From an uncultured Candidatus Saccharibacteria bacterium (lineage in GTDB: Bacteria > Patescibacteriota > Minisyncoccia > Phycocordibacterales > UBA9973): a DNA stretch of 55,285 bases. The notes below the pieces were generated by a model. The model was not told where the DNA came from. It did no database searches and worked only from the letters and a program-made list of their open reading frames with translations. The DNA lies in NCBI GenBank assembly GCA_964498035.1, contig CAZCFW010000001.1, positions 1 to 55,285 of the forward strand, written 5' to 3'. How positions within the stretch are numbered: the first letter of the stretch is position 1; each line of letters begins with the position of its first letter. Position numbers and translations under genes: made by a program. Shown here in pieces: positions 8,511-48,227 of this stretch.

Positions 8511-9536
8511 ATGACAAATAAAAATATTCAACTTTATTTCTTCCTTAGTTTGCTTATAATTATTGCAATTTTTAACATAGCGATATTCTTACCATTTCTT
8601 AAATTATTTATAGTTGTGGCAATTTTTGCTGTGGTATTCACACCAATGTTTGAAAGGATCAGGAAGTATATTGTGAAGAATAAATCCTTTGCAGCAGTTC
8701 TGACTATTGTATTTGTGGCCATACTAGTACTTATTCCGATCACTTTCTTTACTTTCAAAGTTTTTGGAGAAGTGAAGGGAGTATCTAGCAATATCAGTAA
8801 TTTAAATATTACACTTTCACATATTTCAGAAAATTTAAATCATAAGTTTGCAGGTTTTGTCCCTGCAGGTTCTATTGACTTATCTTCTTATATTGGATCT
8901 GTCTTTAGTAATATTGTAAGTAATTTAGGTGGTATATTCTCAAGTATCGCCTCATTTATCCCAGCAATTTTCTTGGCTACTATTGCACTATTTTTCTTTA
9001 TTCGCGATGGTAGAAGCTTTGTTGATAAGATGATACGTATTAGTCCACTTAATGATGAACATGATTTGCAAATACTTACTAAGCTTAAGCGTGCGATAAA
9101 TTCAATAGTAAAAGGAACACTTCTCATGTCTGGAATACAAGGCGTGATGGCATGGATAGGCTTTATGATTTTTGGTGTGCCAAACGCTGCCATGTGGGGT
9201 GCCATCACAATCTTTGCAGCCCTTATCCCGAGTATCGGTACAGCTCTTATTGTGGTGCCTGCTATCGTCTACCTTATATTTACTGGAGCATCACTATTTA
9301 GCATTATAGGCCTTGCAGTTTGGGGAATTTTTATCGTAGGACTTGTGGATAATTTTGCTAGACCAATACTCGTGGGTAAAGAAGTAGATATTCATCCATT
9401 CCTAGTGATGATGTCAGTTTTTGGTGGTCTTATAGTATTTGGTCCTGCAGGATTTATACTTGGACCGCTCGTTCTAGCATTTCTATCTGCACTTATAGAT
9501 ATCTATCCGACAATTACTAAGAAAGTTTTAGAGTAG
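8511..9536 (+). CDS. AI-2E family transporter (PerM/UPF0118-like permease)
   Basis: Multi-span membrane protein with GTLLMSGIQGV..WIGF.IFGVPNA..WG motifs typical of the family. Confidence 0.75.
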   Translation: MTNKNIQLYFFLSLLIIIAIFNIAIFLPFLKLFIVVAIFAVVFTPMFERIRKYIVKNKSFAAVLTIVFVAILVLIPITFFTFKVFGEVKGVSSNISNLNITLSHISENLNHKFAGFVPAGSIDLSSYIGSVFSNIVSNLGGIFSSIASFIPAIFLATIALFFFIRDGRSFVDKMIRISPLNDEHDLQILTKLKRAINSIVKGTLLMSGIQGVMAWIGFMIFGVPNAAMWGAITIFAALIPSIGTALIVVPAIVYLIFTGASLFSIIGLAVWGIFIVGLVDNFARPILVGKEVDIHPFLVMMSVFGGLIVFGPAGFILGPLVLAFLSALIDIYPTITKKVLE

Positions 9537-9539
9537 ATA

Positions 9540-10277
9540 ATGAATAAGAATACTATCAAATTCATAAAGTCGCTACACCTCAAGAAATTCCGCCGTGAAG
9601 AGGGGATGTTCCTCGTGGAAGGTGAGAAAAGCATTGTCGAGCTACTGAAGTCCGACTTCGATATAGTAAATATTTTTATAACGCGCGAAATATTCGAAAA
9701 GTATCGCGAGGATTTCCGGAAGTTTGATGCAATATCTGAAATTGTGGAGGAAGAAGATCTTACAAAAGCTAGCACCCTTGAGTTCAACGACACTGGGATT
9801 GCGGTGGTAAGAGTGAAAGAGAATATAGAATTTAATACTCTAAATGAGATGGCGATAATGCTCGATGAAATTCGTGACCCTGGTAATTTGGGTACTATTA
9901 TCCGCACTGCGGACTGGTATGGAGTAAAGAAAATAATTTGCAGTGAGACGACCGCGGAATTTTATAATCCGAAAGTGATTGCAGCATCCATGGGCTCATT
10001 TACAAGAGTAGATATTTTTTATACTGATCTTAAAAATTATCTAGATAAGTATAAGGATGTGAAAGTTTTAGGAGCACTGCTTGATGGCAGTGATGCACAC
10101 ACATTCGAGTATCCTCACTCTGGAATACTCCTAATGGGTAATGAATCAAATGGCATACATGCTGAACTTTTGCCTTATATCACAGACAAGATTACAATAC
10201 CTCGCTATGGTAAAGCTGAATCGCTCAATGTCTCCATGGCAACTGGCATCATACTAGACAATTGGAAAAGAAAATAA
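9540..10277 (+). CDS. TrmH/SpoU family RNA 2'-O-methyltransferase (RlmB-like, with N-terminal substrate-binding domain)
   Basis: LDEIRDPGNLGTIIRTADWYG, LLMGNESNGI and IP..GKAESLNVSMATGI are SpoU motifs 1-3. Confidence 0.8.
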   Translation: MNKNTIKFIKSLHLKKFRREEGMFLVEGEKSIVELLKSDFDIVNIFITREIFEKYREDFRKFDAISEIVEEEDLTKASTLEFNDTGIAVVRVKENIEFNTLNEMAIMLDEIRDPGNLGTIIRTADWYGVKKIICSETTAEFYNPKVIAASMGSFTRVDIFYTDLKNYLDKYKDVKVLGALLDGSDAHTFEYPHSGILLMGNESNGIHAELLPYITDKITIPRYGKAESLNVSMATGIILDNWKRK

Positions 10278-10307
10278 AAAATAGAGCCACATGGCTCTAT
10301 TTTTTTT
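10276..10307. terminator. Bidirectional rho-independent terminator
   Basis: AAAAAATAGAGCC-ACAT-GGCTCTATTTTTTT between convergent genes. Confidence 0.75.
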
Positions 10308-10497
10308 ACCTTCTTTCTCGGCGTCGTTCGTAGCGACTGTCTTCCTCTTCTTCAATTTTTTCCTTAGTGATACCGCAATTTGGGCACACATTTCCTACGA
10401 GTTTGATATTACATTCAGGGCAGATTGTATCGTCGCTACTGTTTGCGACAGGGGCATCCTCTATAGACAAATTTTCCATGTATTCTTCATAATTCAT
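10306..10497 (-). CDS. Small zinc-ribbon protein (63 aa) with acidic/basic C-terminal tail
   Basis: CPECN...CPNCG double-CxxC motif. It has its own extended -10 8 nt upstream of the ATG and a terminator downstream. I preferred it over the overlapping plus-strand ORF 10291-10521. Confidence 0.55.
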   Translation of the reverse strand: MNYEEYMENLSIEDAPVANSSDDTICPECNIKLVGNVCPNCGITKEKIEEEEDSRYERRRERR

Positions 10498-10505
10498 ATG
10501 AGATT

Positions 10506-10514
10506 AATATATCA
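10506..10514 (-). promoter_or_regulatory. Extended -10 box TGATATATT (minus strand), 8 nt upstream of ATG 10497
   Basis: Reverse complement of AATATATCA with an 8-nt gap. Confidence 0.5.
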
Positions 10515-10543
10515 TATATGAATACTGTAATCAAAATAATGTA

Positions 10544-10552
10544 TGCTATAAT
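10544..10552 (+). promoter_or_regulatory. Extended -10 box TGCTATAAT, 8 nt upstream of ATG 10561
   Basis: TGnTATAAT with an 8-nt gap. Confidence 0.55.
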
Positions 10553-10560
10553 TTTAAAAT

Positions 10561-13227
10561 ATGGAATGGTATAAACAAGAAAGTGGAGAGTTATATAAAA
10601 ACTTAGAGAGCAATGAATCTGGGCTTAGTGAAGAGCAGGTGATTCTTAAAAGGACTAAGTATGGTGAAAACAAATTACCTGAAGATAAAAAAATTACATA
10701 TTTAGAAATATTTTTACGTCAATTCCAAAGTTCACTTATTTATGTGCTTCTTGTGGCTTGTATCATTGTATTTATCATGGGTGATTATGGTAGTGGGTTT
10801 TTTATTGCAATCGTTCTTGTGATTAATGCTCTCATTGGTACCTTCCAGGAAGGCAAAGCTCAAAATACTTTAGTTGCATTAAATCACCTAGTCGATACAA
10901 AGGCGACTGTGCTGAGGAAAGGAATAGAGTTAATTGTAAATGATTCTGAGCTTGTCCCGGGCGATATCATAATCCTAAAAGAAGGCGACAAGATTCCAGC
11001 TGATTCCAGATTAATTCAAGCTGATGAATTTACTGTAGATGAATCAACCCTGACTGGTGAATCTGATAATATTCACAAAAAGTCTGAACCTATCGAGGGT
11101 AACGATCTTGTGATTCAAGATCAAATAAATATGGTTTTCCGTGGTACTTATATTCTCTCAGGAAGTGGGAAGGCGATAGTGGTGGCTACTGGAGTTGATA
11201 CTTTTATAGGTAAGATATCTGTGAAATTAAAATCACTCGATACAGATGTGCCACTAAAGGCAGACATAAAGAAACTTTCAAATGCACTTATTGTGATTGT
11301 ATGCGTTATTGTTGTAATAATGTTTTTCTTAGGAATTTATTCCGGTATCGTGCCGAGAGATATGTTTGCTATCGCTGTAGCAGTGGCTGTGTCTGCCATT
11401 CCAGAAGGTTTGCCTGTGGTGGTGACTCTCATACTAGCCACTGGAGTTTCTCGCATGAGTAAGAGGAATGCTCTGATCAAGAATTTGCAAGCTGTGGAAG
11501 CTCTCGGCCAAGCTGATATTATTGCGGTTGATAAGACAGGCACTATTACACTCAATCAAATGATGGTCACCGAGATATACACAGCCACAGGGTCATATAC
11601 TATCGATGGAGATGGTTATGAGCCAAAGGGTCAATTCAGCCAAGCAGGTAAAATAGTAGACCATACAAGTAGAGTCGACTTGATGTGTATGGGGAAAATT
11701 GCTTCTTTTACTTCAAGTGCGCACATAGCTTACTCTGAGGAAAATAAATTATGGCAGAGAGTGTCTGGTGATCCTACTGAAGTTGCGCTACTCGTATTTG
11801 CACAGAAGTTGGGAATAAATAAATTCGTACTTGAAGCCGAAAATATAAAAATAAATGAAACTCCTTTTAATTATAAGGACAAATTCCATAGTACTTTAAA
11901 TGAAGTCGGTGGTAAGAAAGTATTATTTGTTGCTGGCTCTCCTGAGGTTATTATAAATTCATGTAAAGATGTTTGGACTCCAACAGGTATAGTAGAGATG
12001 GGTTTGAAAAATAAACAAATCGAGGATGGATTAAATAATCTTTTAAGTAAGGGTCTTCGGGTGCTTGCACTTGCAAAATGCGAGGTGAATAATTCTGACC
12101 ATAATGATAATCCTCTTCCAGATCTAAGCTTCGTGGGTTTTGTCGGCATAGAAGATTCTATTCGTAAAGAGGTGGCAGATGCCGTGTCTCGATCTAAAAT
12201 TGCTGGGATTAAAGTAGTGATGATTACTGGTGACCATGTGGAGACGGCGAAAGCTATCGGGAAGACTGTCGGCATATATAATGAAAATGATAAAGTGCTC
12301 ACTGGTTACGAGCTTGATAATCTAAGTCCTAGTGAATTACGCGCGAAGATAGTGCATACGAGTATTTTTGCTCGAGTGACGCCGGATCATAAAATGAAGA
12401 TTATCAATGCATATAAAAATGCTGGCCTTGTGGTGGCCATGACCGGTGACGGAGTAAATGATGCACTTTCTCTCGCCGCAGCTGACCTCGGGGTGGCTAT
12501 GGGCAAGGTGGGTACTGAAGTAGCAAAAGAAGCATCAGACATAGTTCTCCTTGATGACAATTTCGGTAGTATTGTGTCTGCGGTGGAAGAGGGAAGAAAT
12601 ATATACAATACAATTAAAAAGGTAGTGATGTATTTGCTCTCGACAGGGCTTGGAGAAATCTTTGCAATAGCGGGAGCTATAATCTTGGGTCTTGATATGC
12701 CATTTTCTGCAAGTCAGATTATATGGCTCAACTTCGTGACGGATGGATTCCTCGTGGTTGCGCTTGCACTCGAGCCAAGTGATTCAGGTGTCCTTTCTGA
12801 GAAAAGAAGTATTGATGACAAAACCTTTGTGACGAAATCCATGCTCATTCGAATGTTTATAATGGGTCTTGTGATGATGACTGGTACTTTAATATTATTT
12901 AAATTCTACTCCGCTGATTTCCTTAAAGCCTCGACTATGGCTGTGACAGTCCTTGCTATGTATCAATGGTTCAATGCGCTCAATTGTCGTTCTGATAAAA
13001 AATCTATTTTCGGTATGAAAATTTTTTCAAATATGTATTTAAATATTTCTCTTGTCGTGGTTTTAGCTCTGCAAATTATGGCAGTATATGTGCCATGGTT
13101 CAACAGATTCTTGCATACTACACCCATTGGATTATATGAGTGGTTTGTGATTTGTATGATGGCTCTGACTGTGATCGTGGTAGATGAGGTTTACAAATTT
13201 ATCCGTTCTGTTAGAATGCGCGTATGA
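10561..13227 (+). CDS. P-type cation-transporting ATPase (Ca2+/PMCA-SERCA-like, type II)
   Basis: DKTGTITLNQM phosphorylation motif, TGES, MITGDH and MTGDGVNDA hinge motif, plus about 10 predicted TM segments. Confidence 0.9.
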   Translation: MEWYKQESGELYKNLESNESGLSEEQVILKRTKYGENKLPEDKKITYLEIFLRQFQSSLIYVLLVACIIVFIMGDYGSGFFIAIVLVINALIGTFQEGKAQNTLVALNHLVDTKATVLRKGIELIVNDSELVPGDIIILKEGDKIPADSRLIQADEFTVDESTLTGESDNIHKKSEPIEGNDLVIQDQINMVFRGTYILSGSGKAIVVATGVDTFIGKISVKLKSLDTDVPLKADIKKLSNALIVIVCVIVVIMFFLGIYSGIVPRDMFAIAVAVAVSAIPEGLPVVVTLILATGVSRMSKRNALIKNLQAVEALGQADIIAVDKTGTITLNQMMVTEIYTATGSYTIDGDGYEPKGQFSQAGKIVDHTSRVDLMCMGKIASFTSSAHIAYSEENKLWQRVSGDPTEVALLVFAQKLGINKFVLEAENIKINETPFNYKDKFHSTLNEVGGKKVLFVAGSPEVIINSCKDVWTPTGIVEMGLKNKQIEDGLNNLLSKGLRVLALAKCEVNNSDHNDNPLPDLSFVGFVGIEDSIRKEVADAVSRSKIAGIKVVMITGDHVETAKAIGKTVGIYNENDKVLTGYELDNLSPSELRAKIVHTSIFARVTPDHKMKIINAYKNAGLVVAMTGDGVNDALSLAAADLGVAMGKVGTEVAKEASDIVLLDDNFGSIVSAVEEGRNIYNTIKKVVMYLLSTGLGEIFAIAGAIILGLDMPFSASQIIWLNFVTDGFLVVALALEPSDSGVLSEKRSIDDKTFVTKSMLIRMFIMGLVMMTGTLILFKFYSADFLKASTMAVTVLAMYQWFNALNCRSDKKSIFGMKIFSNMYLNISLVVVLALQIMAVYVPWFNRFLHTTPIGLYEWFVICMMALTVIVVDEVYKFIRSVRMRV

Positions 13228-36520: not shown

Positions 36521-37240
36521 TTAAAATCTAAAACTTTTATGAGATTCAATAAAGGCATATTGAAAGCCAGTATAAAAATCCCACTTCCCTTCATGAACCT
36601 GTCCGGTTCCGATCATGAATACCGAATGATGAAGTTTTGTCGGTTCAAAACCTAATTGGAAGAAGTGAAAATCATACCCATTCCGTATCCTACCCATACT
36701 TTGGACTACCAAAGCAAGATTTTTATTGATCTTAATAGGATTACTCAAAAAATTATAACTTACTTCAGTTTTGCGAAGCTTATGCTCAGCATTTCCAAAT
36801 AAGCTATAATTTACTCCCACGGATGCAATATGAAACCAGTTTGAGCACGGTTTTAAATCTTCAAGATAAAGTTTAAACCCAGTCTGGAAGTGATTTTTAC
36901 TGTACTCGGTTCCAAATAGATCATTCTCGAAACTTGCTGTTAGGTGTAGAGGCCCATACAATTTAGGGTCTAGTGAAATAGTGTAAGCGTATTCCTTGTT
37001 TGAGAAATTATATTCCCCAAAGAAATAACTTTTTAAAAAGGAATTTTTACCTAATTCTAGTAAGTAGTTTCCACTACTTATGATGTCATTCTCTTTTGGA
37101 GCCCATTGGGCTTCTACTTCGAGCGCTTGGAATTTAAATCTACGAGAATGATAGTTTAGAGAGTCTTGAGCAACTGCTCTACAACTAATAAAGATAAACG
37201 CATATAATAGCGTTGAACTGGATAGTATTTGCTTTGCCAT
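36521..37240 (-). CDS. Secreted beta-barrel-like protein (outer-membrane-protein-like), 239 aa
   Basis: Signal peptide (LLYAFIFISCRAVAQD), alternating aromatic/polar pattern throughout, and a C-terminal aromatic ...SFRF typical of OMP beta-signals. Confidence 0.45.
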   Translation of the reverse strand: MAKQILSSSTLLYAFIFISCRAVAQDSLNYHSRRFKFQALEVEAQWAPKENDIISSGNYLLELGKNSFLKSYFFGEYNFSNKEYAYTISLDPKLYGPLHLTASFENDLFGTEYSKNHFQTGFKLYLEDLKPCSNWFHIASVGVNYSLFGNAEHKLRKTEVSYNFLSNPIKINKNLALVVQSMGRIRNGYDFHFFQLGFEPTKLHHSVFMIGTGQVHEGKWDFYTGFQYAFIESHKSFRF

Positions 37241-43343: not shown

Positions 43344-43372
43344 TTGACATTTAGGCAAAAATATGCTATGAT
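43344..43372 (+). promoter_or_regulatory. Promoter TTGACA-17-TGcTATGAT of the giant repeat-protein gene
   Basis: Perfect -35 and extended -10, followed by a ~70-nt A/C-rich leader that is almost free of G. Confidence 0.55.
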
Positions 43373-43447
43373 TGAGCAAACTTTAAAAAATTAATACAAC
43401 AACAAAAAATCAATCTAATTCACAACAATCAAACCAACTCCTAACAC

Positions 43448-46400
43448 ATGAAAGTTATCAAATTCCTAATCCTGACGCTCGCTTTAATTAGCTTGAGCAA
43501 TCTGACATTCGGTCAATCTACACCATCGGTGCAAACCAATTATGCAAGACGCATATTTGGAACTTCAGCTATTTTGGATGGCTACGTGGATCCTAACAAT
43601 GATTCCACAATCAGCTATTTCATTTATTGGAAAAGCAGTTCAACAAAGATAGATACAAGTGGTATTTACCACAACTATCTTGATGCCGGTGCTATTTCAC
43701 AAACCATTACAGGGCTAACATCAAATACTCTCTACAGTTTCAAGATTGTAGCGAAGAATAAAAATGGAACCAGTAGCGGACTTGTGAATACTTTCTTTAC
43801 CCCGACCATGACGGCTCCAAGTGTTTATACCTGGAACCCTGGTTGGGTTGGTGATACTGATCAATTACAAATAGGTGGAGCTTTCCAAGCAAACGGATTG
43901 ATTACAACTACCTGGTACCAGTACGACAGTCTTCCCACCGCATTCAGAGATTCTACTTCTGCTGTTCTTCAGCAGGAAACTGATCAATGGGGCATGTGGG
44001 AAAATCTGATGAACTTAAAAACGTACAAGAAGTACTACGGTAGATTAGTTGCAAAAAATGATTCCGGAATTACTTATGGCAATACAATTGTCATGAGGAC
44101 ACAGGGCAGTAAACCGCCGATAGTGGCTACGGATTCTGCAACTAATATTATGCAAACATCTGCTTACTTAAATGGAAAGATAAATGCACTAGGTAACTGT
44201 TATAACTGGCGTTTTGAATACGGCACAAGCCCGACTTCATTAAGCAATGTTATCCCATTAAATTATAACAATACTAATTGGGTATGTAATAGTTACTATA
44301 GTGGTAATCCTGATGAAGATTTTGTAAGTACTGTAATTTATGATTTAACAAATAACACTACTTATTATTATCGAATCGTTGGAGAAAGTTGGAGAGGCAC
44401 AACCCGTGGCAATGTAATATCATTTACTACCCAGGGTAGCCTCGCCCCAGATGCAATTACTTTAACTGCGGACAGTGTTTCTTACACTAGTGCTCAGTTG
44501 ATTGGATACTATGATGCAAGGGGTACAACTCCAGTTCAGAATTCATTCGAGTATGGTAAAACCGTTTACTTCGGATTAACAACAGTACCTGTTAGTAATT
44601 CGAAAGCAACTGATTCAGTCAGAGTAAAAGTTCCAAACTTAGAAAGTGGTACTGTATACTTTTTTCGCCTAAAATCGAGAAATCAGCACGGTACGACTTA
44701 CGGGAACGTTATTACTTTTACTACAAAGAATGATCAACCTCCATCAGTAACTACTGATTCGGCAACTGCTGGTCTAACGACTGCAAATGCATATGGTAGT
44801 TATAAACCAAATGGAACAGCTACGGAAACATGGACTGAATGGGATTCTGTCCCAAATTTGTATCGTTTCAGAACTAGCAAAAGTTCTCGTGGAACTACAA
44901 ACGGCAATATTGCCGAAACTATTTCAGGTCTTCTGACTAATCACATATATTATGTGAGGTGTGCTGATTCAAATGCTTTTGGAAAAGCGTATGGTCAAAC
45001 CATCCCAGTGAGAACTCTGAATAATGAGAAACCGAGCACAACGACTGACTCAGCAACAGGAATTGCTGATACATATGCATACCTAAATGCAATTGTAGAT
45101 GGAAAAGGAACAAATAGTAATTATATGTTTGAGTATGGCTTTACGCCTACCTCACTTATAAAAACTACTACTCTAACTTCGTTTGGTATGGGATTCGTTT
45201 TTGTATCTTCCCCAATATTTGGGCTTCCTGCTAACACCATAGTTTACTATCGTATAAAAGCGAATAATACATGGGGTACAAATTTTGGAAGTATCAAATC
45301 ATTTACAACATCGCCTAACCAGGCTCCTGCTGTAAATATTTTTGACAAAGATTCACTTTCACCAACAACGGTACAGCTGAAGATAGCAATTGATGGTAAG
45401 GGTACGTTAAGTAAGGTTGCTGTAAAATACGGAACTTCACTTTCTTTCGGAACCCAAACGATATTTGTAAACGCAACAAAAGTTGTGGATACGATAGTTA
45501 TTAAGTTAGTAAACTTAATTCCTGACTTGTTGCACTACACTGCGCCAATTGGCGAAAATAGTTTTGGTACGACTCAAGGCAGTGTCTTTGGGTTTACTAC
45601 ACCAAATAATGAACCGCCCAGCGTGGCGACTGATTCGTCAAATAATATTGGGCTTAATTCAATAACTGTACACGGAAATTTCGATTCAAAGAAAAATTCA
45701 ACACAGACATGGGTGGTGTACGATACATTGCCAAACATGTTTAGGTTCAGTACTTCTAAAGTTGCACGAGGCACTTCATTGGGAAATATTTCGGATGTCC
45801 TATCTGGGCTTTTGAAAAATCACGTATACTATTTCAAGTATGCGGCTGAAAATTTCTACGGATTAAGTTATGGTCAAACCCTAACTTCAAAAACCACAAA
45901 TGATGAAAAGCCTTTAGCTACAACTGATAGTGCGGATGGTATCACGGATACCTACGCAACCTTGAATGCACTTGTTGATGGAAAAGGAACTGATAGTTAT
46001 TACCAATTCGAGTACGGCGCTTCGCCTACTGCTTTAGTAAAAACAACAGCTCTTACTACTTTCGGGAAAGGATCTTCTTATGTTTCCGCAGTTATCTACG
46101 GACAACAATCAAACTCCACAATTTATTATCGTGTAAAAGCGATTAATAATTGGGGATTTACCAGAGGAAATATTCTTTCTGTAAAGACTGCACCAGCAGG
46201 TACGCCGATTGTTTCAATCTTGACTATCGACTCTATTACTACAAATACTGCGCGAGCGGTAATAGTAATAAATGGACAAGGTACTTTAAGTAAAGTAGCG
46301 CTTAAATATGGTCAAACGCTTTCCTTCGGAACGCAGACAATATTTATAACTGCTAATAAGTTGATCGATACAATCGTAGTTAAACTAAATTCGTTAACAT

Positions 46401-47917
46401 CCGATAAGCAATATTATGTTGCTGCACTCGGTGAGAACAATTTCGGTATAACTCAAAGTACTACTGATGGATTCTACACTCTGAATAATAAACCAGCGAA
46501 GGTTTATTTTAGTTCTATATCTATGCTTCCTACAAGTGCTACTTTTTTTGGATCTTACAATTCAAAGAAAAATAGTACATATGTTTGGGTGCAGTATGGA
46601 ACTAACTCATCGTTGTCTCAAAAAACTAATGTAATTAGCAATCTTTTAGATTCTAATAATTTTAGTTTGACGGCTAATTCCTTACTAGCGAATACATGGT
46701 ATCTTTACCGTTATTATGCAAGTAATGTTTATGGAAGTGATTCGACAGCGATTGACAGCTTCCTTACACCCGGTAATCAAGCACCTTTAGTAATAACAGA
46801 CACTGTTGGAATGTTAGGAACCAGCTACGCTACCCTGAATTTAAGAGTAGATGGAAGAGGAACAAGCACAGTAGTTTATTTCATATATGGTACTAATCCT
46901 TCAAATTTATCTAGCTCTACCCTATCAATGGTATCTGGAAAATACGCAAATTCGATTAACTTACCAGCGTATGGATTAAATTCAAATACTGTTTACTACT
47001 ACAAAGCAGCCTCTGTAAATTCATGGGGTACAAGTTTTGGTTCAGTTTTAAGCTTTAAAACTTTAGACAACCAAAGTGGTCCACCACCAAGTACTAGAAA
47101 AGCTACTATTGTTGTTCTTACAACAAGTTCTGGTTCAACCTATGGAACTGTGAATGCGACCTTTAACGGTCACGGAAATAGTTTCTCGTATTGGGTAGAA
47201 TATAACGACCAATTTACTTGGGCTAGTACGTCTATTATGACAAGCAAGGATACTGGGATTCAAACAATTCCAATCCTAATACCTAATTTGTTAATGAATC
47301 GTGTGTGGTATTGTACTGTACACCTAAAAAATTCTTTAACAGATACCGTTGCTTTTGTTGAACTAAGCACGTTCAACATAATGCCTCCGATTGCTAAGAC
47401 ATTAGATATTCTTGGTATCATGAATGACAGAGCCATATTTCATGGCTATTATGATGGTTTTGATGCTGGGGCTACAACGTGGTTTGAATACGGAGATTCG
47501 TTTCCTCTTTCAAACCAAACGAATAAAATATTTCACAATGGGACTCACGACAGTTTATCTCTACTGGTAAATAATCTGAAGCCCGGAAAAAAATATTTTT
47601 ACCGTTTTGCCGCAAAGAATAGTTATGGTACCAATTATGGTGACCCAGTTCAGTTCAAGACCTCAGGTATAGCATCTGGTATTAAAAATGATGTAGCTAA
47701 AGGAAAAATTTCGGTTTATCCTAATCCTACAACTGGTGTAGTAAAAGTCACCGGCTATGAGGGTGTTGTTGTATTAATTGATTTAACAGGCAAGGAACTA
47801 TTCCGAAAAACTGTTAATCAAAGTAACAATGTTCTCGATCTTTCTGGTTTAGGAGCTGGTATGTATATGCTTTACTCTGAAAACCATTCTTTGATGCAAA
47901 AAATTATAATAAATTAA
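43448..47917 (+). CDS. Giant secreted protein (1489 aa): 14 tandem Fn3-like modules plus T9SS-type C-terminal sorting domain
   Basis: Signal peptide, then ~97-aa modules each ending ...Y(Y/F)(Y/F)R..A.N..G...G....F.T. The final ~70 aa (ISVYPNPTTGVVKV...IDLTGKELF...LDLSGLGAGMYML...QKIIIN) match the Por/T9SS type A sorting-domain pattern. Confidence 0.8.
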   Translation: MKVIKFLILTLALISLSNLTFGQSTPSVQTNYARRIFGTSAILDGYVDPNNDSTISYFIYWKSSSTKIDTSGIYHNYLDAGAISQTITGLTSNTLYSFKIVAKNKNGTSSGLVNTFFTPTMTAPSVYTWNPGWVGDTDQLQIGGAFQANGLITTTWYQYDSLPTAFRDSTSAVLQQETDQWGMWENLMNLKTYKKYYGRLVAKNDSGITYGNTIVMRTQGSKPPIVATDSATNIMQTSAYLNGKINALGNCYNWRFEYGTSPTSLSNVIPLNYNNTNWVCNSYYSGNPDEDFVSTVIYDLTNNTTYYYRIVGESWRGTTRGNVISFTTQGSLAPDAITLTADSVSYTSAQLIGYYDARGTTPVQNSFEYGKTVYFGLTTVPVSNSKATDSVRVKVPNLESGTVYFFRLKSRNQHGTTYGNVITFTTKNDQPPSVTTDSATAGLTTANAYGSYKPNGTATETWTEWDSVPNLYRFRTSKSSRGTTNGNIAETISGLLTNHIYYVRCADSNAFGKAYGQTIPVRTLNNEKPSTTTDSATGIADTYAYLNAIVDGKGTNSNYMFEYGFTPTSLIKTTTLTSFGMGFVFVSSPIFGLPANTIVYYRIKANNTWGTNFGSIKSFTTSPNQAPAVNIFDKDSLSPTTVQLKIAIDGKGTLSKVAVKYGTSLSFGTQTIFVNATKVVDTIVIKLVNLIPDLLHYTAPIGENSFGTTQGSVFGFTTPNNEPPSVATDSSNNIGLNSITVHGNFDSKKNSTQTWVVYDTLPNMFRFSTSKVARGTSLGNISDVLSGLLKNHVYYFKYAAENFYGLSYGQTLTSKTTNDEKPLATTDSADGITDTYATLNALVDGKGTDSYYQFEYGASPTALVKTTALTTFGKGSSYVSAVIYGQQSNSTIYYRVKAINNWGFTRGNILSVKTAPAGTPIVSILTIDSITTNTARAVIVINGQGTLSKVALKYGQTLSFGTQTIFITANKLIDTIVVKLNSLTSDKQYYVAALGENNFGITQSTTDGFYTLNNKPAKVYFSSISMLPTSATFFGSYNSKKNSTYVWVQYGTNSSLSQKTNVISNLLDSNNFSLTANSLLANTWYLYRYYASNVYGSDSTAIDSFLTPGNQAPLVITDTVGMLGTSYATLNLRVDGRGTSTVVYFIYGTNPSNLSSSTLSMVSGKYANSINLPAYGLNSNTVYYYKAASVNSWGTSFGSVLSFKTLDNQSGPPPSTRKATIVVLTTSSGSTYGTVNATFNGHGNSFSYWVEYNDQFTWASTSIMTSKDTGIQTIPILIPNLLMNRVWYCTVHLKNSLTDTVAFVELSTFNIMPPIAKTLDILGIMNDRAIFHGYYDGFDAGATTWFEYGDSFPLSNQTNKIFHNGTHDSLSLLVNNLKPGKKYFYRFAAKNSYGTNYGDPVQFKTSGIASGIKNDVAKGKISVYPNPTTGVVKVTGYEGVVVLIDLTGKELFRKTVNQSNNVLDLSGLGAGMYMLYSENHSLMQKIIIN
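43814..47380 (+). repeat. Four copies of a ~292-aa (about 876-nt) three-module super-repeat inside the giant gene
   Basis: Approximate aa blocks are 123-430, 431-722, 723-1015 and 1016-1311. PPSVTTDSAT (431) recurs as PPSVATDS (723). Each A, B and C module type aligns with its counterpart one period later. Confidence 0.7.
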
Positions 47918-47935: not shown

Positions 47936-47968
47936 AAAACCGCTTTCTTAATTGAAAGCGGTTTTTTT
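47936..47968. terminator. Bidirectional terminator
   Basis: AAAACCGCTTTC-TTAATT-GAAAGCGGTTTTTTT. Confidence 0.75.
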
Positions 47969-48227
47969 ATATGGTATTTTCAGGGAGAGGTAAAGGCAAT
48001 GCTTTGTATTCGTTTAATTTTTTTTCTACCTGCTCTCTTTCTGATTCATTGCTATTTTGGTAAAAACGATGGGTATATGCAGATATGGCAAACGCATTGT
48101 GTATAAGATCTTGGCTCCATCCTACATCTTCCAATTCCCCATGTATCACATGCTGAGACTTTTCGAGCAATTTCTGCCCGACAATATAACTTGCTAGTAA
48201 TTCTATGTTTTCTGCACTGCTTTTCAT
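47967..48227 (-). CDS. Hypothetical protein (86 aa)
   Basis: ORF 4 nt downstream of the FAD-oxidase gene on the same strand. No recognisable domain. Confidence 0.35.
   Translation of the reverse strand: MKSSAENIELLASYIVGQKLLEKSQHVIHGELEDVGWSQDLIHNAFAISAYTHRFYQNSNESEREQVEKKLNEYKALPLPLPENTI

Follow-up and report, generated by a model that had tools for sequence, protein, structure and literature searches.

A type-A T9SS sorting domain at the end of a very long, putatively secreted fibre protein in a small CPR genome

The window analysed here, a stretch of 55,285 nucleotides, lies on a 135-kb contig where the ATP synthase operon, L25, and tRNAs are also encoded, and it belongs to a 0.77-Mb genome of the Paceibacterota/Minisyncoccia (CPR) that is 87% complete (G000). 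At 43448–47917 on the forward strand, the sole long frame encodes the protein P0001. The features of this locus are as follows:

43344..43372, + strand: sigma-70-type promoter, TTGACA-17 nt-TATGAT with extended -10 TG, 11 of 12 consensus positions
43380..43447, + strand: 68-nt 5' leader with 0 G (A37 C17 T14), without a Shine-Dalgarno sequence, unstructured
43448..47917, + strand: CDS of the secreted fibre protein P0001, 1489 aa, stop codon included
43448..43513, + strand: Sec signal peptide, residues 1-22, predicted cleavage between TFG and QS, giving Gln at +1
43517..47683, + strand: 14 tandem Fn3-like (PhoD_N / Pur_ac_phosph_N-type) beta-sandwich modules, residues 24-1412, from module table and score matrix
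44747..46498, + strand: strong super-repeat pair, modules 5-7 (44747-45625) against modules 8-10 (45626-46498)
47069..47368, + strand: module 13, sequence-atypical, the best-conserved part between orthologs
47714..47914, + strand: type-A T9SS C-terminal sorting domain (CTD), residues 1423-1489, ending at the last residue of P0001
47936..47975, + strand: intrinsic terminator, 12-bp stem then T run, hairpin 47936-47965, 19 nt past the stop codon

The N-terminus of P0001 (MKVIKFLILTLALISLSNLTFG followed by QS) was predicted by direct reading and a heuristic to be a Sec signal peptide, and Gln at +1 is also found in the orthologs P0002 (cleavage between MFG and QA) and P0003 (between MSA and QA). 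The 14 modules are 92–110 aa in length. In profile searches, PF16656 matched P0001 in five stretches at 45.4 bits (cut-off 30), whereas PF00041, at 24.1, fell slightly below its cut-off of 25; tandem FN3 structures were matched by an AlphaFold model of module 14 together with the CTD. Self-comparison gave 55% identity between modules 5–7 and 8–10 at an offset of 293 aa. Four copies of a three-module (A-B-C) super-repeat had been described in an earlier note on this DNA, which is only roughly right because modules 2–4 and 11–13 are much diverged, with module 13 barely fitting the C type, leaving a single strong pair. Module 13 is 88% identical to its counterpart in P0002 (40–76% for the other modules), and it is missing from P0003.

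Although encoded in a CPR genome, P0001 ends in a bona fide T9SS CTD of type A. Both curated models of this domain scored above their cut-offs, PF18962 at 38.8 bits (cut-off 27) and TIGR04183 at 37 bits (cut-off 23; 44.2 bits in a six-frame search), and, with PF16656 also above threshold, the architecture read earlier from the letters (signal peptide, 14 Fn3-like modules, terminal T9SS tail) was borne out. Solved T9SS CTDs are matched in sequence (5jvk at 4e-6, 7pzj, 8glj_D, and 8glk_D) in an alignment that takes in three motifs, PNP, G-Y, and the terminal K-x-I, and seven strands are predicted in the AlphaFold model. These motifs are retained in both P0002 and P0003, although the domain as a whole, at 47% and 25% identity, respectively, is one of the most weakly conserved stretches of P0001; most modules are 57–88% identical to those of P0002, with modules 9–12 as low as the CTD (40–54%). 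Such low conservation would also fit relaxed constraint. CTD sequences are poorly conserved in Bacteroidota as well.

The strong conventional promoter and unusual G-poor leader noted previously were both confirmed, the leader in fact containing no G over its 68 nt. Folding gave an MFE of -0.7 kcal/mol over 91 nt (z-score 0.19), and no Rfam family matched the leader. Absence of G from the 60 nt upstream was seen for only 0.3% of G000 ORFs, the other such ORF being the second CTD gene of this genome (on C2). The ortholog locus L023 keeps the -35 box and a TGnTA..AT -10 box, and the leader blocks AATACAACA and AATCAAACCAA are conserved there.

The searches for T9SS and outer-membrane machinery covered PorU, PorV, SprA, GldK, and Omp85. 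All five were absent from G000 (87% complete), which does encode a sortase with an adjoining LPNTG substrate, an arrangement of monoderm type. Across the genus, SprA was found in 0 of 93 species (the positive control, Caldithrix, scored 617 bits), Omp85 exceeded the cut-off in 0 of 93, and PorV in 0 of 65; in five other CTD-rich CPR genomes, one of them closed, PorV and Omp85 were both absent. The paradox raised in the earlier note is real: a CPR genome encodes a type-A CTD but shows neither T9SS nor Omp85. With the T9SS translocon, PorV, and Omp85 all missing from the genus, the CTD cannot serve as an outer-membrane export signal here. The accompanying statement that nothing else in the window is of this kind did not survive, because a predicted 12-strand outer-membrane-type beta-barrel is encoded at 36521–37240, and G000 has two further genes with a CTD, both on separate contigs that carry housekeeping genes. 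Barrels of this type were found in 9 of 93 genus species, each of which also has a CTD (hypergeometric p 1e-5, not corrected for phylogeny), and the barrel has an aromatic C-terminus resembling a beta-signal (...SFRF).

CTDs above cut-off were found in 29 of 93 species of the genus, 31 of 301 genomes of the order, and 22 of 401 of the phylum, frequencies that are upper bounds because some CPR matches are contamination: G1078:C28, on which SusD and a PorV-like gene accompany a CTD-bearing S8 peptidase, and the similar G403:C3 are FCB-like contigs in CPR bins. Positive genus species have 1–4 copies, and nearly all CPR CTDs end 0–4 residues from the stop codon. Their passengers differ (Fn3 wall, discoidin-like domain, M43-like protease), two CTD flavours occur among the CTD-bearing CPR, and one CTD gene, in G432, is a decaying copy with an internal stop. 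The genes are set among housekeeping genes (L25, UvrC, NusA, type IV pilus genes, tpiA-pgk), and a comparison of the surroundings of 20 CPR CTD genes, which have only housekeeping genes in common, revealed no partner or receptor for the CTD. Gln at +1 was read in 3 of 3 CTD proteins of G000 and, across the genus, in 5 of the 6 CTD proteins whose N-terminus could be read; the secreted proteins thus show a Bacteroidota-like "cargo grammar." In a Bacillota-phylum control, CTDs were found in 27 of 301 genomes, and all 5 of those tested contained Omp85; outside CPR the domain therefore tracks the outer membrane, making CPR a true exception. No published account of T9SS tails in CPR was found.

Only two close relatives of P0001 were identified, P0002 at 54% and P0003 at 41% identity. 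P0002 occupies the same slot between L25 and an FAD oxidase on an independent metagenome contig, with promoter and leader conserved, and its organism lies further away than members of the same genus do, as L25 identity is 53%, compared with 74% for a genus mate. The contigs of the relatives have a housekeeping context of small-genome type, one with a 23S-rRNA intervening-sequence protein and split transketolase genes and the other with NusA, pyrophosphatase, and RNase Y. None of the 92 other genus species has an ortholog of P0001, which is therefore dispensable. Codon usage of the gene is typical of its genome (RSCU r 0.74 against 0.75 +/- 0.10), as is GC3 (0.29 against 0.34 +/- 0.06; 23rd percentile), whereas its tetranucleotides correlate less well with the genome (0.78 against 0.94 +/- 0.04) because of Thr/Ser/Asn/Tyr-rich repeats. 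The nearest non-CPR homologs are ~29% identical, and modules of this family occur most often in proteins labelled Bacteroidota, several of which have PF18962. Horizontal acquisition from Bacteroidota, as proposed earlier, is possible only as an old event; the distance to these homologs and the CPR-style sigma-70 promoter speak against a recent one.

As tags occur in a third of a genus in which none has a T9SS or outer membrane, the tag presumably has another job. The reading we favour, with a probability of roughly 0.55, is that P0001 is a long-resident, accessory, Sec-exported surface fibre whose CTD has been retained for a role unrelated to T9SS, whether as an anchor or in binding a partner. 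The tail is the address tag of Bacteroidota type IX (outer-membrane) secretion, here on what would be a very long secreted fibre of a tiny single-membrane CPR bacterium. P0001 would be transcribed singly from its strong sigma-70-type promoter, and translation would start from the unstructured, G-free leader without a Shine-Dalgarno sequence. Following presumed Sec export, the signal peptide would be cut off to give Gln at +1, and the 14 Fn3-like modules would form an extended rod of ~50 nm terminating in a real type-A CTD fold. That fold would be kept as an autonomous terminal beta-sandwich module, most likely as the end that holds the fibre to either the envelope of the producing cell or a partner cell. 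A repurposed sorting signal had been among the explanations offered previously and is favoured here since the CTD is real and T9SS and Omp85 are absent; its new role is what we infer.

The tail may instead be a relic, the family having come into CPR from FCB bacteria with every part of a T9SS cargo protein (signal peptide, Gln at +1, passenger, CTD), and with the CTD now a stable, harmless, functionless end domain and the protein released or otherwise held. Its weak conservation, the patchy distribution of the gene, the decaying copy in G432, and the Bacteroidota-weighted module family are consistent with this account. We consider it unlikely, however, because motifs and strict C-terminal position are kept in orthologs from organisms as distant as L25 indicates, the CTD sits on unrelated passengers in 31% of genus species, and weak conservation also marks CTDs of Bacteroidota; with codon usage fully ameliorated and the closest non-CPR relative at 29% identity, a useless 70-aa domain had a long time to be lost. 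Alternatively, the organism could be an episymbiont of a T9SS-bearing diderm host, the CTD docking on the host PorV/PorU attachment complex and the barrel acting on the host outer membrane. We know of no type-A CTD ligands besides T9SS components (complexes 8glj and 8glk were matched), and the full cargo grammar, the restriction of the barrel to CTD-positive species, and the frequent placement of CTD genes in a NusA / type IV pilus / tpiA-pgk surface island point the same way. Yet binding to PorV from outside is a supposition, the host is hypothetical, the genomes with barrel and CTD may be a few related lineages, and two CTD flavours imply no single host group, so this scheme appears distinctly improbable.

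Co-occurrence of CTD proteins with a barrel bearing a beta-signal-like end could also suggest that certain Paceibacterota possess a layer resembling an outer membrane and made independently of Omp85, with barrels inside it and CTD proteins received through non-canonical machinery. This is very improbable given the genus-wide absence of Omp85 and SprA, the sortase and LPNTG substrate in the same genome, and the accessory, patchy character of barrel and CTDs, which are not core envelope genes; to our knowledge, published cryo-ET of CPR cells has reported no outer membrane. A mis-binned or chimeric contig, the gene truly being of a Bacteroidota genome, is scarcely credible for P0001. Contamination of that sort was seen in sister bins, and the tetranucleotide value is low, but the dip is due to the repeats, and the native codon usage, the 135-kb contig, the recurrence of the gene at this position on an independent contig, and the conserved promoter and leader lead us to reject it, in line with the earlier judgement that chimerism was less likely.

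Among known systems, P0001 shares with the type-A CTD cargo of Bacteroidota/FCB T9SS (TIGR04183 / PF18962) a Sec signal peptide, Gln at +1, passenger domains, and a ~70-aa C-terminal beta-sandwich with PNP, G-Y, and terminal K-x-I motifs that ends at the stop codon. Examples of such cargo include substrates from F. johnsoniae (PDB 8glj and 8glk) and RgpB from P. gingivalis. Here, however, SprA, PorV, PorU, GldK, and Omp85 are absent and a sortase with an LPNTG substrate is present, so T9SS-dependent export, CTD cleavage, and A-LPS anchoring cannot proceed as in that cargo. Giant CTD-tailed proteins of diderm Bacillota (1200–3600 aa) are likewise secreted, with a TIGR04183-type domain 0–17 residues from the stop codon, but the 5 of 5 tested genomes with Omp85 have an outer membrane, unlike CPR. 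PF18962 was counted as a cell-anchor domain in 118 fibrillar adhesins, "mostly in Bacteroidetes" (Monzon, Lafita and Bateman, doi 10.1101/2020.12.07.414375), which resemble P0001 in their long Ig/Fn3-like repeat stalk and C-terminal PF18962; P0001 differs in that no adhesive tip was detected, all 14 modules being of one fold, and in its monoderm CPR cell. Fn3 repeat proteins of the PhoD_N / Pur_ac_phosph_N type, which JGI calls "phosphodiesterase/alkaline phosphatase D-like protein" and which occur in Bacteroidota as well as in other phyla, belong to the same module family and are 25–31% identical over most of their length, several with PF18962, whereas the close relatives P0002 and P0003 are encoded in small-genome-type housekeeping contexts.

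The gene under study is a single 4470-nt frame encoding a 1489-aa fibre protein, P0001, as had been read from the window before. The elements of the gene are as follows.

43344-43372, + strand, promoter TTGACA-17-TG-TATGAT (sequence match)
43448-47917, + strand, P0001 open reading frame, 1489 aa
P0001 residues 1423-1489 (last 67), type-A T9SS C-terminal sorting domain (CTD), ending on the final residue; PF18962, TIGR04183
47936-47965, + strand, terminator hairpin, 12 bp

By direct reading and a heuristic, the N terminus is a classical signal peptide, MKVIKFLILTLALISLSNLTFG cut before QS (ending LTFG/QS), and it is followed by 14 modules of 92-110 aa each. In a pairwise score matrix, modules 2-13 fall into types A (2, 5, 8, and 11), B (3, 6, 9, and 12), and C (4, 7, and 10). 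The earlier note had proposed four A-B-C copies with a period of about 292 aa; the three types and the period stand (ungapped self-comparison has its maximum at a 293-aa offset, with 55% identity), but modules 5-7 versus 8-10 form the only strong super-repeat pair, and module 13 resembles type C weakly. The remaining super-repeat copies are old. The modules are Fn3 domains of the PhoD_N/Pur_ac_phosph_N type, with PF16656 reaching 45.4 bits (cut-off 30) over five stretches and classical fn3 reaching 24.1 bits, slightly below its cut-off of 25. Matrix and family score thus agree with the 14 Fn3-like modules claimed previously. Family-model searches found no domain of a non-Fn3, non-CTD fold in P0001 that could be a separate adhesive domain. 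Module 14 and the tail were modelled together with AlphaFold from 3 sequences (mean pLDDT 68), and the model predicts two beta-sandwiches with a flexible linker between them. When this model was searched with Foldseek, the best PDB matches were generic tandem FN3 pairs; CTD structures were not singled out, although a sequence search against the PDB did find them.

In that sequence search, the tail matched the solved T9SS CTDs 5jvk (4e-6) and 7pzj and the cargo CTDs in 8glj (8glj_D) and 8glk, and the residue-by-residue alignment with 5jvk, 7pzj, and 8glj_D runs through YPNPT, G-x-Y-x-L, and the terminal K-I-I-I-N. HMM searches placed the tail over both curated cut-offs, with 38.8 bits for PF18962 (cut-off 27) and 37 bits for TIGR04183 (cut-off 23; 44.2 bits in a six-frame genome search), as expected from the earlier identification of a type A sorting tail. 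Judged by these scores, the tail is a member of TIGR04183/PF18962. P0001 combines a C-terminal domain with a predicted N-terminal Sec signal peptide, and the tail has PNP near the first strand, G-x-Y, a basic-hydrophobic last strand, and a beta-sandwich fold, which is modelled with seven strands at moderate confidence (pLDDT about 56-78). No LPxTG-like motif was found in P0001, which therefore does not qualify as a sortase substrate. No small protein similar to the module 14/CTD pair was found among 5.8 billion proteins.

The presence of a type-A CTD is taken to signal type IX secretion across an outer membrane. As anticipated, no match to PorU, PorV, SprA, GldK/PorK, or Omp85 was found in the genome carrying the window, G000, which is 87% complete. 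Within the genus, SprA was found in 0 of 93 genomes, with a control search of a Caldithrix genome with 77 CTDs returning SprA at 617 bits. Omp85 over cut-off was likewise found in 0 of 93, with seven diderm reference genomes positive in the same search, and PorV over cut-off in 0 of 65. PorV and Omp85 were each found in none of five other CTD-rich CPR genomes. Because the searches for SprA, PorV, PorU, GldK/PorK, and Omp85 did not find this defining machinery, P0001 does not fall under the definition of functional T9SS cargo. The search for sortases did return a gene, adjoined by that for a 419-aa protein whose C terminus consists of KLPNTG, a hydrophobic stretch, and RRK (contig C12 of G000, 9879-11712, - strand); this sortase/LPNTG pair is classical monoderm-type wall anchoring.

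A control sample of 301 genomes was taken from the phylum containing Priestia megaterium (Bacillota), 27 of which had CTDs over cut-off, in C-terminal position on giant proteins. These giants (1200-3600 aa; G1014, G927, G785, G816, and others; loci L161-L170) have their own CTD flavour, APNP..TFYYDI..GTLYVYDIAGRLV..NGLYLYVVV..VGRLVVSR. The Bacillota were rejected as monoderm genomes with CTDs, as Omp85 was present in all five CTD-bearing genomes tested (165-188 bits); they are presumably diderm, CTD-rich Firmicutes. Outside CPR, the CTD therefore follows the outer membrane, and CPR is the genuine exception.

The gene looks native to its genome. G000 is an assembly of 767,708 bp in 51 contigs with 1.7% contamination, and the window covers the beginning of one contig of 135 kb. 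The AtpA sequences most closely related to that of a genus mate carry the names Candidatus Paceibacterota and Minisyncoccia. The check on tetranucleotides proposed in the earlier note gave a low correlation between gene and genome (0.78, against 0.94 +/- 0.04), which is explained by amino-acid bias. A reading of this value as foreign DNA was rejected, because synonymous codon usage (r = 0.74 versus 0.75 +/- 0.10, 38th percentile) and GC3 (0.29 versus 0.34 +/- 0.06) are ordinary for G000. Transcription signals follow the earlier description, which had noted a strong conventional promoter and an unusual G-poor leader of about 70 nt. The predicted promoter and terminator show the gene to be its own transcription unit, apparently monocistronic and strongly promoted. 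The leader is 68 nt long and contains no G (A37 C17 T14); it lacks a Shine-Dalgarno sequence, appears unstructured (minimum free energy -0.7 kcal/mol over 91 nt), and had no match in Rfam. Only 0.3% of G000 ORFs have a G-free 60 nt upstream, and the other case is a second CTD gene, on contig C2.

The same 5.8 billion proteins yielded two close relatives, P0002 (54% identity) and P0003 (41%), both from metagenome contigs and both with PF18962 tails; the next matches are only about 29% identical, and a scan of genome contigs with P0001 found no close relative in named genomes. On the 39-kb JGI contig that carries P0002, the gene order is SLT/L25/(295 aa)/gene/(173 aa)/FAD oxidase/FBP aldolase/PfkB, which puts P0002 in the slot that P0001 occupies in the window, and the promoter boxes and leader blocks of the two genes still align. 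The P0002 organism is farther from G000 than a genus mate is, with L25 53% versus 74% identical and SLT 40% versus 69%. In the genus mate G424 (840-kb contig), the slot holds a 157-aa gene only and the giant gene is absent, and no ortholog of P0001 was found in any of the 92 other species of the genus. The gene is not an artefact. Given the shared slot, promoter, and leader in so distant an organism and the lack of orthologs in the genus, it is old in CPR but accessory, and it was either lost many times or moved between CPR lineages. Conservation between the two proteins differs by region.

Identity between P0001 and P0002 by region
Modules 1-4: 68-76%
Central repeats (modules 5-12): 40-65%
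Module 13: 88% (best conserved part)
Module 14: 67%
CTD: 47%

With P0003, the CTD is 25% identical and modules 1-4 are 44-53% identical. The P0001 tail thus evolves fast yet keeps its motifs. Fast evolution with retained motifs is the general behaviour of CTDs.

CTDs over the TIGR04183 cut-off were found at each of the three ranks sampled.

Genomes with TIGR04183 matches over cut-off
Phylum sample: 22 of 401
Order sample: 31 of 301
Genus, species representatives: 29 of 93 (31% of species)

Most CPR genomes with CTDs have 1-4 copies, with a maximum of 10 (G479), and a closed 962-kb genome has four. Nearly all CPR matches terminate 0-4 residues before the stop codon. Two flavours can be seen, NYPNPFNP...KKMxLLK and a shorter YPNPT...K-I-I-K, the latter being that of P0001 and the whole genus. 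G000 contains three CTD-type genes, P0001 and the following two.

Contig C2, 11103-11969 (locus L002, 1486-2352), - strand, second CTD protein, 288 aa, adjoining uvrC; PF18962 36.9 bits
Contig C13, 7397-8782, + strand, third, CTD-like protein, 461 aa, secreted; PF18962 21.9 bits, below cut-off

The C2 protein has a signal peptide and a weak discoidin/F5_F8_type_C-like region. The C13 gene lies within an island of PPase, NusA, a 1569-aa secreted protein, type IV pilus genes (PilB, PilC, and pseudopilins), and tpiA-pgk. Four genomes from two other families (G666 and G723; G488 and G587) also have CTD genes in the PPase/NusA/pilus/tpiA-pgk island, and the CTD gene of the P0003 contig sits in it as well. 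When 353 ORFs from 20 loci were clustered, only housekeeping families were recovered (tpiA, pgk, HIT, IF-3, and others), and no conserved partner gene was found beside the CPR CTD genes. A full-text search found no paper on T9SS tails in CPR.

Two sub-threshold PorV matches were noted in bins of the genus, on contig C28 of G1078 (L184, 9.3 kb) and contig C3 of G403 (L185, 5.3 kb). Both of these short contigs encode a PorV-like barrel, which is accompanied on one by a SusD-like gene and an S8 peptidase with a CTD, and on the other by a TonB-dependent receptor tail and a giant CTD-like protein. The matches were rejected as native, and both contigs are clearly FCB/Bacteroidota contaminants. Because they carry CTD proteins, some CTD counts in CPR bins are inflated. 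Most CTD matches in the genus sit tens to hundreds of kb into contigs.

All three CTD proteins of G000, and five of six in the genus with a readable N terminus, have Gln straight after the predicted signal-peptide cut. Gln at +1 is known as the "Q-rule" of Bacteroidetes. Across G000, 10 of 107 signal peptides called by a crude heuristic (about 9%) have Gln at this position, against a Gln background of 2.5%; examples start at C2:3241, C2:14711, C4:249, C4:3200, C8:4170, and C26:4060. Gln at +1 was rejected as a marker of Bacteroidota origin because of this genome-wide frequency and because a barrel family confined to CPR has A/Q in 8 of 8 members; it is a trait of the secretome of the G000 lineage. 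The family includes a protein encoded in the window itself.

36521-37240, - strand, predicted outer-membrane-type beta-barrel protein, 239 aa, signal peptide ...CRAVA/QDS, C terminus ...SFRF

The earlier note had stated that nothing else of outer-membrane kind lies in the window, and this gene contradicts it. An AlphaFold model from 8 homologs (pLDDT 77, pTM 0.72) predicts that the protein folds into a transmembrane beta-barrel with about 12 strands, and every PDB match to it is an outer-membrane barrel (FapF, PcoB, KdgM, NanC, and the intimin beta-domain). No Pfam model was found for the family, and the sole source name given for it is Candidatus Paceibacterota. The barrel was found in 9 of the 93 genus species, two of these by weak matches (E about 1e-7 to 1e-8); without exception, the nine are CTD-positive (hypergeometric p 1e-5, ignoring shared ancestry). 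None of the 300 other genomes in the order sample yielded it, and two broken copies are present (G429 and G413). The co-occurrence of barrel and CTD gives a concrete, testable hypothesis.

P0001 would be exported by Sec and may form a rod of about 50 nm, at 3.5-4 nm for each of its 14 modules. In architecture, it is like the fibrillar adhesins with Por_Secre_tail anchors, which have been catalogued mostly in Bacteroidetes (doi 10.1101/2020.12.07.414375). The stalk of such adhesins is present, and module 13 is atypical as well as best conserved. We favour, at a probability of roughly 0.55, a T9SS-independent role in which the CTD secures the fibre at its end, to the envelope of the cell itself or to a partner. 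That the tail is instead a functionless relic is unlikely; the CTD identities of 47% and 25% can be set on its side, and the retained motifs and the position of the tails at the very C terminus on the other. Mis-binning is extremely improbable. The low tetranucleotide value could be counted in its favour, and the native codon usage and the same slot in the P0002 contig agree with the earlier view that a mis-binned or chimeric contig is the less likely explanation.

The barrel bears on the remaining readings. It is doubtful that the CTD proteins and the barrel form one toolkit, either directed against a diderm (FCB) host, with its outer membrane and its T9SS attachment machinery as targets, or marking an Omp85-independent outer layer in some Paceibacterota. 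The host-directed form, in which the CTD docks on the PorV/PorU complex of a diderm host and the barrel acts on the host outer membrane, is improbable when taken separately; it would have a parasite attach its fibre to CTD receptors that belong to the host. An unrecognised outer layer is very improbable, with the barrel fold on one side and the genus-wide lack of Omp85 and the monoderm-type sortase pair on the other. Under either toolkit reading, a lineage taken as monoderm would make functional use of a "diderm-only" sorting signal and barrel fold.

The wider interest is that the type-A CTD is common in a genus without T9SS or outer membrane (31% of species), on native genes that look well expressed. 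Should the tail serve a function in CPR cells, CTD counts would no longer be evidence of T9SS, and the tail would offer a handle on how uncultivated episymbionts build their surface or hold partners, a question that has long been open.

The content of the slot between L25 and the FAD oxidase varies, with different small ORFan genes in each genome.

Window 47967-48227, - strand, 86-aa ORFan, G000
L023 (P0002 locus) 8883-9770, - strand, 295-aa ORFan, P0002 contig
L023 15156-15677, + strand, 173-aa ORFan, P0002 contig
L060 (G424 locus) 10611-11084, - strand, 157-aa SET-like protein, G424

The FAD oxidase itself was found in only one of five genus genomes tested.
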